NCBI GenBank assembly: GCA_030141605.1
Contig: JAQGDQ010000006.1
Location: 1,302,001 to 1,366,000 of the forward strand
Reading direction: 5' to 3'
DNA from: Tubiluchus corallicola
Taxonomy: Eukaryota; Animalia; Priapulida
Length of the DNA stretch: 64,000 nucleotides
Both the position numbers and the translations under genes were made by a program. Below are positions 35,001 through 38,000 of the stretch, piece by piece (position 1 is the first letter of the stretch; each line of letters begins with the position of its first letter). The notes under the pieces are model-generated. The model searched no databases and had not been told where the DNA came from. It was given only the letters and a program-made list of their open reading frames with translations.

Positions 35001-38000
35001 TACCCTAGTTGGTAAATTTACAAGTTGATCTAGTCCTTGTTGCAAAATTAAATCACAAAATGCTTGGCATAACCTAGAGCCTAATGGGTACTCAAAACAA
35101 TTGCCCCAGGAAAAATCTGACATATTAAAATCGCAAATAAAAATAACAGGGAATTTACTATTAGCTAAGAATTCCATACATTTAAAAAGACTAAGAGACT
35201 GATTTATATTACAACTGGGTGATCGATAGACAACTAATCTAAAAGGTCGATCACCAAGTACATTTATAGCTAGAATTTCAAGATTACTGAACATAACAGG
35301 AATTTTAACAGGTGACACTTTCAAACTGGAATTAAAAAATAAAGCAAAACACCCCACCACGAGTGTCTCTGTCTTTACTGAGAACTGAAATTAAAACCAT
35401 TTAACAACATTTCCTTCGTAATTTCTGGAGTTAGCCATGTTTCACTGAATGCATACACCTCATAATTACCGTGGTTCAATAAAACATAGAGCTCAGAGAG
35501 CTTATTGACAAGACTTCTAGCATTTGCATAAAAAACCGATAAATTCTCAAAAACAGTAGCTCAATTATCTTTATGTCTCCTTGCATTGTTTCACACTAGC
35601 AAACTGTTATTATCAGTTCTATTTACAGGTAAAAGATTATCAGCAGATAAAACTTCTTTAGCAGACAAGTTATCATTGCTATTTTGAACAGCTATCTCTT
35701 TAGGTGACTACTAATTTTCTCTGCAGACAAGGAACATGCTTCTGCAGAACCCTTGATCAGTATACAGCACTGTCCATCTTTATTGGCAGTCTTTCCAACT
35801 GAAATATCGCAGATGTATTTTGCCCTTAAAAAGTTTATGAATGATCCATGTCTGCCTATCACATGACCAACTTGACTCGGATGCACTAGTTTAGTAATGG
35901 ATGTATTAGTCTCTGTTTCACAGTGTTCCATCGATGAAACAGGTTTACGTGATAGTACAGATTTAATTGCCTTCGTCCGACTTTTTATCTGAATGGCCTT
36001 TCTCTCTCTTTCAAGCTTAGTAAGGCTGGATTCTACGTAGACATTTTTGTCCAGTTAGTGCTAGTTTTCAAAATGCTCTTATTTTGCAGAACACATTTGA
36101 CTACATCACTGCTCTTAAACCACACTAACGTTGGTCTTTTCCTGCTTTTTTCCAAGTCTGTTAACAAAGATTGGAGAATCGGAAATCTTCAATAGATTAA
36201 AAACCTCTTTGCAACGATTTTTATCCTCATACATCTGGTCTTCATATGCATGGATTCGGGTATGTGCTTAATAACAACAGCTTTATCACATTCGGCTTTG
36301 TCTACCGGTTCACGAACTAACAAATCCAGTCGTGCCACCATCTCATGAACACTTTTTCTCAAATCTCGTAAATTGGAATCTTGTAAATTAGCTGTTTTGA
36401 TTTCCTCTCTCAAAGCACAAATGTCAGACTTAGACGCTTTATCTGAGATTTTGGATTCTATGGTTGACAGCTGTATCTGAATCTTTGCCTCCAGCTCGGA
36501 GATTTTTTGTCTATGTTCATGTCAGTTGCAACAGCCTTCAATGCTTTTGGGTGACATGCCATACAGAACCAGACTAGAAGTGCCTAGCAGACAATGAGCA
36601 CTGTACTCATCATCATCCATACCTAGGCATGTCACACATAACCAAATGTGGCACCAATCGCATTCCATTGCTGGCATTTCATCGTGCAGTATTTCTTCAC
36701 ATAGATGACAGATGCAGTTTTCTGCATCAGATGTGAACTGATTTTGTGGTGTGTCTAAGCAACCACTTCCAATAATGTTGTCTTTCATAAGAGTATACTT
36801 ACCAGTAGATGTAGACATTTTGCTCTTATCTTTCAATTTTGTGGACCGATTGTTAGTAGAAACCTTATTATTGTGTACACTTTTACCTTTCCGCACACGA
36901 GTGTTCGATACACAAACGCTGCTCATTTGTAGCGATTATTAAGTAACAGCATGCGAAGTCCTGCTTTAGAGTACGATTTTGATTGATCTGAGCTATTATC
37001 CACTTAATTAGACGAAAATACTACATTTATTTCGGTAATTTAGAGAATAATTCAACGGACAAAAAAATTTAAATGTCCGACCAAGTGGTTTAGCAGAATA
37101 AATGTTTTTCGTGTTGTTTTGTGATGTGATGAATTTTGATGATATTGGCATTTAACTTCCATAATTGAATAAGTGTACATGTATATACTATGCGTTATTG
37201 TTGCTTTCTTCAGAATCATCCTTGCTATTGATGCTGATGCAAAACGACTACAAACGATGAGGCGTTTGATGACTACTGCTGGCGTGACTTGTACAAAGTT
37301 GATCAATGCTGACTTTTTGTCACTAAATCCAGAGGACAAAATGTAATAATTATACTGAAGTTCTTGTTGATTTTTGAACCTAAATAGCTATGCCGCAGTT
37401 TCATTATTATGATTTTTGCAATCCCTAGCTCCTTCTAGGGTTGTTTACCAAATGTTTTTTGAAGTTGGTTTGAAAAAATCTTTGTTGGCATGTTTTAATT
37501 CTGCATGTCTTTGTCTCTGGTTCTTGTCTTGTTTGGTAAATGATTTCACTAATTGTTACTAATTTCCATGTAGTTACTTCAGTTCAGCCTCTTTTTCTCG
37601 GTTTTGCACAAATTATAATTTAATAATTATGTATTAATTTTAGGTTTAAAGAAGTGCATTATATTCTCGTGGATCCTTCTTGTTCTGGCTCTGGTATTGT
37701 AAATAGACTAGATTACCTAGTGGACAAAGAGGAAGTGCCCTCAGCTGAAAGACTAGAAAAACTATCTAAATTTCAGGTTTGTCATTGGAGTTTTGTATTT
37801 AATCCTTTCAGTACGTAGTTGGTTTTAACAGGGCCGCACTGGCTTTGGTACATTTGAGAATAACTTCTTGTGGTGTGTTACTAAAACAGAATCTTGTAAA
37901 TAAAATAACTATAGCCATTTGTTATTAAACATTAATATTGAATATTAGTTTTATTTATATAGATGCACACACATCCACGCACACATATATGCCCTCATGC

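Follow-up and report, generated by a model that had tools for sequence, protein, structure and literature searches.

Does the KH domain encoded within an intron of a Tubiluchus corallicola gene belong to a LINE retrotransposon and, if so, what might it do there? We analyzed this question in a window, by which we mean the whole stretch of 64,000 nucleotides (contig JAQGDQ010000006.1, positions 1,302,001 to 1,366,000), in which a first-pass annotation had described a KH domain fused to the end of a LINE ORF1. The features of the element and its surroundings are listed below in order along the element, with coordinates relative to the window. P0147 in this list is an unbroken relative from a protein search described further on.

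33560..37213, plus strand: host intron of NSUN5, with the element antisense (NSUN5_N, NSUN5_fdxn-like, and Methyltr_RsmB-F matches on both sides)
36711..36926, minus strand: putative ORF1 start (ATG 36926) and basic N-terminal region
36554..36710, minus strand: PHD-like zinc finger CxxC..CxxC..WxCxxC..CxxC (sequence pattern; frameshifted near 36575)
36310..36503, minus strand: predicted coiled coil (weak Pfam coiled-coil matches, below cutoff)
35990..36290, minus strand: RRM-like and C-terminal-domain (CTD) region (collinear with P0147; broken by frameshifts)
35905..35989, minus strand: in-frame link from the ORF1 end-motif to KH (frame reading; 14 nt at 35968-35981 absent in one sister copy)
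35698..35904, minus strand: type I KH domain (Pfam KH_1, AlphaFold2 model, structural matches)
35594..35701, minus strand: Asn/Ser/Asp-rich tail of 36 open codons (endonuclease frame)
35591..35593, minus strand: TGA common to the sister copies, in frame with the endonuclease
34880..35590, minus strand: ORF2 APE endonuclease, frameshifted (Pfam Exo_endo_phos_2)
34083..34879, minus strand: ORF2 region between endonuclease and reverse transcriptase (RT) (translation)

A type I KH domain in frame behind an ORF1 end-motif

The stop-to-stop frame at 35692-36054 on the minus strand (open part 35695-36054) encodes 120 residues and holds the ORF1 end-motif and the KH domain together. In the minus-strand translation, the end-motif that starts at 36045 continues into MEHCETETN...IGRHG...SAEKI with no stop or shift between them. 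Thus, both peptides that had been claimed to form one unbroken reading were found in a single frame. The Pfam KH_1 profile matched this frame at 36.7 bits (E 3.7e-9, curated cutoff 21.5) over residues 56-114, corresponding to 35889-35713. An AlphaFold2 model built from a three-row alignment had block pLDDT values of 90-95 across residues 51-120, and the modeled domain was arranged as strand-helix-helix-strand-strand-helix (beta-alpha-alpha-beta-beta-alpha), which is the type I topology. When compared to 48,161 solved chains, the top structural match was Nova-1 (Z 12.7, rmsd 1.2, 73 aligned), and the top rows were the KH domains of Nova-1, IGF2BP3, MEX3C, and Nova-2 (Z 11.8-12.7, rmsd 1.1-2.0). 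Foldseek agreed on a KH domain, with PCBP2 KH3 at E 3.8e-5. The GxxG loop is intact, as the first-pass annotation had reported for its type I KH assignment (IGRHG), and it has a basic residue (GRHG, 35856-35845). These matches are far beyond what is expected by chance and identify the segment as a type I KH domain, in frame behind an ORF1 end-motif.

The domain shares its fold and GxxG loop with the cellular type I KH domains of Nova-1, Nova-2, IGF2BP3, PCBP2, and MEX3C. Unlike cellular KH proteins, to which its identity is 18-27%, the window encodes a single KH domain within a transposon protein rather than a multi-KH regulator. An origin as an exon of the host gene was ruled out, as the host gene is NSUN5 on the opposite strand. 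NSUN5, an rRNA methyltransferase gene, occupies 29877-39540 (+). Its exons flanking the element are one ending near 33560 and the next at 37214-37342, which was read by eye and has no Pfam match on its own.

Several other genes occupy the window. A mosaic serine protease gene at ~9150-21350 (+) encodes SEA, SRCR, and trypsin domains together with several LDL-receptor A repeats. Its layout resembles that of enteropeptidase or matriptase, with a long mucin-like stalk, and a 587-codon open exon (12577-14337) consists of Pro/Glu/Thr/Ser repeats. A Ras-family small GTPase has exons at 23578-25984 (-), and an SLC4/Band 3-type anion transporter has exons at 56007-61215 (+), with a Band_3_cyto match. 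A low-complexity trinucleotide-like repeat at ~47400-48020, which has long hydrophobic frames, is probably a microsatellite.

Downstream of the KH domain, as had been claimed, lies the APE endonuclease at the head of ORF2. Exo_endo_phos_2 matched it at 41 bits (cutoff 27.4), and its first motif is ~150 nt past the KH domain. The element ends at ~34083, ahead of the RT core, following an ORF2 region in which we recognized what we take to be the pre-RT motif. Its 5' part is kept and its 3' side cut, which is the reverse of usual LINE truncation; the cut at ~34083 is probably a later deletion. No RT match was obtained when 150 other window frames were scanned with Pfam. These were drawn from the 166 frames of at least 62 residues outside 34000-37400, with the remainder being mostly repeat-derived or low-complexity and three lying near the right end. 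No second copy of the element was found within the window. The element likely belongs to the CR1 group, a label that we presume from its ORF2 motifs. Because it carries several frameshifts and stops, the window copy is dead: it is a decayed, 3'-cut LINE copy of a multi-copy family.

Upstream of the KH domain, the claimed ORF1 order of PHD, coiled coil, RRM, and KH held in part. The order is collinear in the unbroken protein P0147, whereas ORF1 outside the KH frame is broken by several frameshifts in the window copy, and its PHD and RRM parts are recognizable at the level of motifs, without a Pfam match. The first 40 residues of ORF1 include 10 Lys or Arg versus 1 Asp or Glu. The PHD-like finger has eight Cys ligands, with Cys (WLCVTC) at the position where PHD fingers usually carry His, and the residues at its end share 70-71% identity with the N-terminus of P0147. 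In the RRM/CTD-like region, we take RLG..RP.L..F and V...LT.LER to be motifs typical of this ORF1 type. Pfam gave no PHD match on the frameshifted window pieces or P0147, and an RRM or CTD (transposase_22-like) match to these same sequences was found in neither Pfam nor the PDB. Structures of L1 ORF1p also gave no match by sequence. ESM Atlas neighbors of P0147 carry PHD and Baculo_FP_2nd at scores of 0.80-0.86, which we treat as a lead only. We apply the PHD and RRM labels at motif level, on the strength of the motifs and the Atlas lead. A single-sequence model of P0147 had low confidence (mean pLDDT 48): the part matching the coiled coil formed long helices at moderate pLDDT, the RRM-like part was poorly modeled, and Foldseek returned no match for the model at E 0.001.

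Sister copies and the boundary between ORF1 and ORF2

Sister contigs were taken from four public runs belonging to two studies at 80% likeness. In run X2, four contigs besides the window's own covered the KH domain at 35785, two covered 35879-35887, and one covered the sequence from 35990 upstream. These contigs were diverged over both the KH domain and the endonuclease, with many falling in the 90-95% and under-90% bands. Four contigs cannot all be alleles in a diploid animal, although one might be, and we therefore read them as multiple dispersed copies. The KH domain belongs to a small family of copies, and all copies seen in T. corallicola are decayed. One presumed RNA run contributed no matching sequence.

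The KH frame closes in the window at a TAG (35694-92), which we rejected as the true ORF1 stop because sisters join the KH frame to that of the tail and endonuclease. This TAG is most likely a private lesion, since three sister contigs carry bases after the KH domain that are absent from the window copy. One sister spans 35618-35773 with a net gain of 4 bases, which places the KH domain in the frame of the Asn-rich tail and endonuclease, and has stops of its own. Another, gap-free over 35704-35788, has a loose end that reads 10 open codons from the KH domain into the tail by hand translation. The Asn/Ser/Asp-rich stretch is likely the original ORF1 tail after the KH domain, shifted off the KH frame in the window copy only.

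The tail frame has two TGAs. The one at 35563-61 is altered in all five sister contigs. For the one at 35593-91, no substitution is listed in the five, although one sister is without a base there and another begins beside the codon, making it the least secure. The codons behind this TGA are open in 5 of 5 sisters. TGA 35593-91, ~43 codons past the KH domain, is likely the true stop of ORF1. No in-frame ATG precedes the first endonuclease motif (region 35545-35590). An ATG at 35586 was rejected as the ORF2 start, as its frame differs from that of the endonuclease both in the window and in a sister that is gap-free over 35591-35515. ORF1 and ORF2 appear to be split by one in-frame TGA, making this boundary a candidate for AUG-free re-initiation or read-through.

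Within T. corallicola, the join between the CTD and KH domain is in frame in one of the two readable copies. The sister readable over this join (runs X2 and X4) is without 14 nt and reaches a stop 25 residues in, before the KH domain and 31 nt before the ATG that heads it. This copy counts against an ORF1-KH fusion in the Tubiluchus family, and we weighed it as a probable deletion in a decayed copy. We read it this way because the relatives P0147 and P0033 keep the join at nearly the same spacing, because the 14 nt repeat nothing adjacent, and because the stretch ahead of the KH domain scores 43 against P0033 versus 31 for the motif alone (p 0.0007). The residues just behind the 14 nt resemble the relatives weakly, with shuffle p values of 0.02 and 0.09, or 0.24 and 0.27 when the 14-nt part is included. 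Many other small losses are seen in the sister contigs.

Two of the five sisters covering the TGA stop matching at 35646/35649 and have no KH-side sequence. The breakpoints in these two (runs X1, X2, and X4) are at most 3 nt apart and are followed by at least 255 unrelated bases. A 5' truncation is the simple reading, although the two may represent a KH-less subfamily. Alternatively, the site may be prone to truncation, or subfamilies may differ in their 5' part.

Distant relatives with the same join

A phmmer search of the 120-residue frame against 1.84 billion representatives gave 146 matches. Only one of these, P0033 (26% identity), covered the ORF1 end-motif and KH domain as a single stretch. 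No match to the endonuclease or PHD part was present among the 146, and the 6 of the other 145 that were scanned with Pfam were all multi-KH proteins. A profile of the window and P0033 found P0147, with 2 of 578 candidates passing. P0147 is an unbroken protein of 331 residues with the end of the PHD-like finger, the predicted coiled coil, the RRM-like part, and the KH domain in one frame. Its alignment to the window is collinear and extends over 36620-35695 (tblastn E 5e-17 and 3e-13). KH_1 scored 38.7 bits on P0147 and 32.2 bits on P0033. P0147 ends ~20 residues past its KH domain and P0033 ~84, neither with an endonuclease motif. From their alignment to the window, we infer that both are LINE ORF1 proteins. 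P0147 offers the strongest support for the PHD-coiled coil-RRM-KH architecture.

Both proteins carry the join between the end-motif and KH domain in frame, at nearly the spacing of the window, even though the families carrying it are only 26-29% alike. All three KH loops keep GR-x-G (GRHG in the window and GRNG in each of P0147 and P0033). P0147 and P0033 are each from a single contig and, because they are 63-64% alike, count as about one independent lineage. Together with the presence of the domain in sister copies, the same in-frame join in these proteins upholds the claim of a captured KH domain over that of a one-off insertion.

Other searches added no relatives. A search with P0147 passed 3 of 4563 candidates and yielded no further relative. 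P0031 was rejected as a relative, being a plain multi-KH protein. A word-based protein search with the 120-residue frame among longer proteins passed 0 of 216 candidates, which is weak evidence. No related loci were found in JGI metagenomes, prokaryote genomes, or viral contigs, collections that are poor in animal DNA.

We placed the KH domains in a tree of 67 columns comprising the 70 best-scoring of 426 KH stretches cut from the matches (356 left out), with rows ranked by a profile of the three element KH domains. The window, P0147, and P0033 formed one group with support of 93/89, where 93 is below the threshold of 95, and the group appeared in 96% of 200 bootstrap trees. The three are ~1.8 changes per column apart. 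With its 67 columns, the tree resolves no sister group or donor for the element KH domains. This grouping suggests, and is consistent with, a single old capture of a KH domain.

Known ORF1 types and the predicted role of the KH domain

We next compared this architecture to known ORF1 proteins. In their survey of 448 Jockey-superfamily elements, Metcalfe and Casane 2014 (PMC4120745) list PHD, coiled coil, RRM, CTD, CCHC, esterase, and zf/lz modules in Table 1, which has no KH, and the term KH is absent from the available text and 3 supplements. The closest class is their ORF1 type IIC, composed of PHD with a transposase_22-like coiled coil, RRM, and CTD (CR1 subgroup 5 and L2 subgroup 6). Like type IIC, the element appears, at motif level, to have a PHD-like finger, coiled coil, and RRM/CTD-like region ahead of its APE endonuclease. 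In contrast to type IIC, the protein continues in frame past the CTD-like region into a KH domain, as seen in the window, P0033, and P0147, making this a variant rather than a plain member of the class. According to the same source, RNA is bound by the RRM and CTD of L1, and SART1 owes the specific packaging of its RNA to CCHC knuckles that follow the RRM. The element resembles type I ORF1 proteins with RRM and CCHC (Jockey lineage, CR1 subgroup 3; SART1) in having an accessory nucleic-acid-binding module behind the RRM. It differs from them in that the module is a KH fold rather than zinc knuckles and sits on a type II scaffold.

The term KH was also absent from the accessible portions of a 2026 survey of vertebrate CR1-group elements (PMC13343379), of PMC5563155, and of a survey of L1 ORF1 with 2 supplements (PMC5203782), whose domain table may lie in another file. 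Full-text searches on KH in retrotransposons, for which Repbase, Dfam, and subscription papers were outside the scope, gave no transposon-encoded KH domain among the matches listed. Within this scope, we did not find a KH domain in LINE ORF1 described.

A captured MBD is reportedly present in a Copia element (PMC6673714). A Jockey ORF1 with a captured viral SF1 helicase is described in PMC5563155. As in both, a retrotransposon protein acquired a foreign domain that was then retained across families, although here the domain and the clade are different. Domain capture into LINE ORF1 is a known process, to which the KH domain adds a variant of a modular protein class.

Our proposed explanation is that the KH domain in frame after the ORF1 end-motif of this multi-copy, decayed LINE, likely of the CR1 group, would add a sequence-selective grip on the element's own RNA; taken as a whole, we consider this reading probable. 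Its two parts differ in strength. We hold the ORF1-KH architecture to be highly probable, and selection of own RNA as the job of the KH domain, which is argued by analogy, to be slightly favored. A cellular KH domain would have been acquired a single time, in an ancestor of these families, and retained since. ORF1 would consist of PHD, coiled coil, RRM/CTD, KH, and a short tail, with its stop at TGA 35593-91, and ORF2 would follow in the same frame without an AUG and be made by re-initiation. In human L1, ORF2 translation begins without an AUG, which may reflect re-initiation (PMC11485995). By analogy with L1 ORF1p, the protein would trimerize through its coiled coil while the RRM/CTD coats RNA. 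Recognition by a KH domain covers up to four bases and depends on the GxxG loop, which mostly holds a basic residue; changing the loop to GDDG switches the domain off (PMC3413153). A trimer would hold three such domains, and their combined reading of up to four bases each may provide avidity where a short word recurs in the element's transcript. Such avidity would favor packaging of the element's own RNA, a task that in SART1 falls to the CCHC knuckles found at this position. The conservation of GR-x-G in all three KH domains is as expected if the predicted RNA binding was selected.

We weighed this explanation against other readings of the same layout. The KH domain might instead open ORF2 (Met-Glu-His..., KH, linker, endonuclease), with ORF1 ending at the stop of the sister without the 14 nt and the fusion in the window being a later accident. 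The position of that stop, 25 residues in and 31 nt ahead of the ATG at the head of the KH domain, would suit this arrangement, as would the frame shared by the KH domain and endonuclease in sisters, and L2 subgroup 5 is described as having a PHD at the start of its ORF2 (PMC4120745). We nevertheless judge it improbable: P0147 and P0033 keep the join in frame at nearly the window's spacing, the common TGA stands between the KH domain and endonuclease, and the lost 14 nt repeat nothing adjacent in contigs with many other small losses. There is a similarly slim chance that ORF1 and ORF2 form one read-through unit, in which a leaky in-frame TGA yields a PHD-CC-RRM-KH-endonuclease-RT polyprotein and the KH domain also serves ORF2p. 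The bases after TGA 35593-91 do not fit what we understand to be the context of leaky stops, AUG-free re-initiation accounts equally well for the layout, and P0147 and P0033 end 20 and ~84 residues past the KH domain without an endonuclease motif. Read-through would agree with the single in-frame stop, the lack of an in-frame ATG before the endonuclease, and the open codons behind the TGA in 5 of 5 sisters; single-ORF subgroups of CR1 and L2 also exist (PMC4120745, in part). Combining both ideas, an old uncatalogued LINE lineage may use a cellular KH domain that it swapped in for sequence-specific recognition of its own RNA (three per trimer, on a short repeated word) and also carry it into ORF2p by read-through of the TGA into the same polyprotein, which we consider quite unlikely. 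If this combination were true, it would represent a novel class of ORF1 as well as a novel coupling of the two ORFs.

The remaining alternatives concern the purpose of the domain. It is unlikely, in our view, that the KH domain was kept to act on host RNA or granules, as a decoy for host KH proteins or in routing the RNP. A single KH domain reads only up to four bases (PMC3413153, in part), which is little for self-recognition, and a role against host defense has been proposed for LINE-captured domains (the viral helicase in Jockey ORF1, PMC5563155). Against this, the position right behind the RRM/CTD, where type I ORF1 has its RNA-packaging knuckles (PMC4120745, in part), favors action on bound RNA, as would the avidity of the predicted trimer. 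That the KH domain is a neutral passenger or one-off insertion is very improbable. The two sisters without KH-side sequence and the decay of every Tubiluchus copy seen would fit a passenger, but in families with just 26-29% likeness the domain occupies the same place, has an intact loop, and falls into one tree group; it is also present in four sister contigs, and the host gene NSUN5 is on the other strand. The reading that we prefer remains that of an ORF1 module gripping the element's own RNA.

We find a LINE lineage that has retained a KH domain at the ORF1 end over a long evolutionary distance and is represented so far by one dead copy, its decayed sisters, and two proteins. For annotators, it is a warning that a lone KH_1 match in an animal intron may be a transposon rather than part of a host gene. 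The finding leaves the understanding of LINE movement unchanged. The KH domain would join the catalogue of ORF1 modules, alongside RRM, CCHC, PHD, coiled coil, esterase, and the viral helicase. LINE ORF1 proteins show little preference for sequence when binding RNA, yet they favor their own transcript, a puzzle that a KH-bearing family makes testable, given a known code of up to four bases and the change of GxxG to GDDG as an off-switch (PMC3413153).
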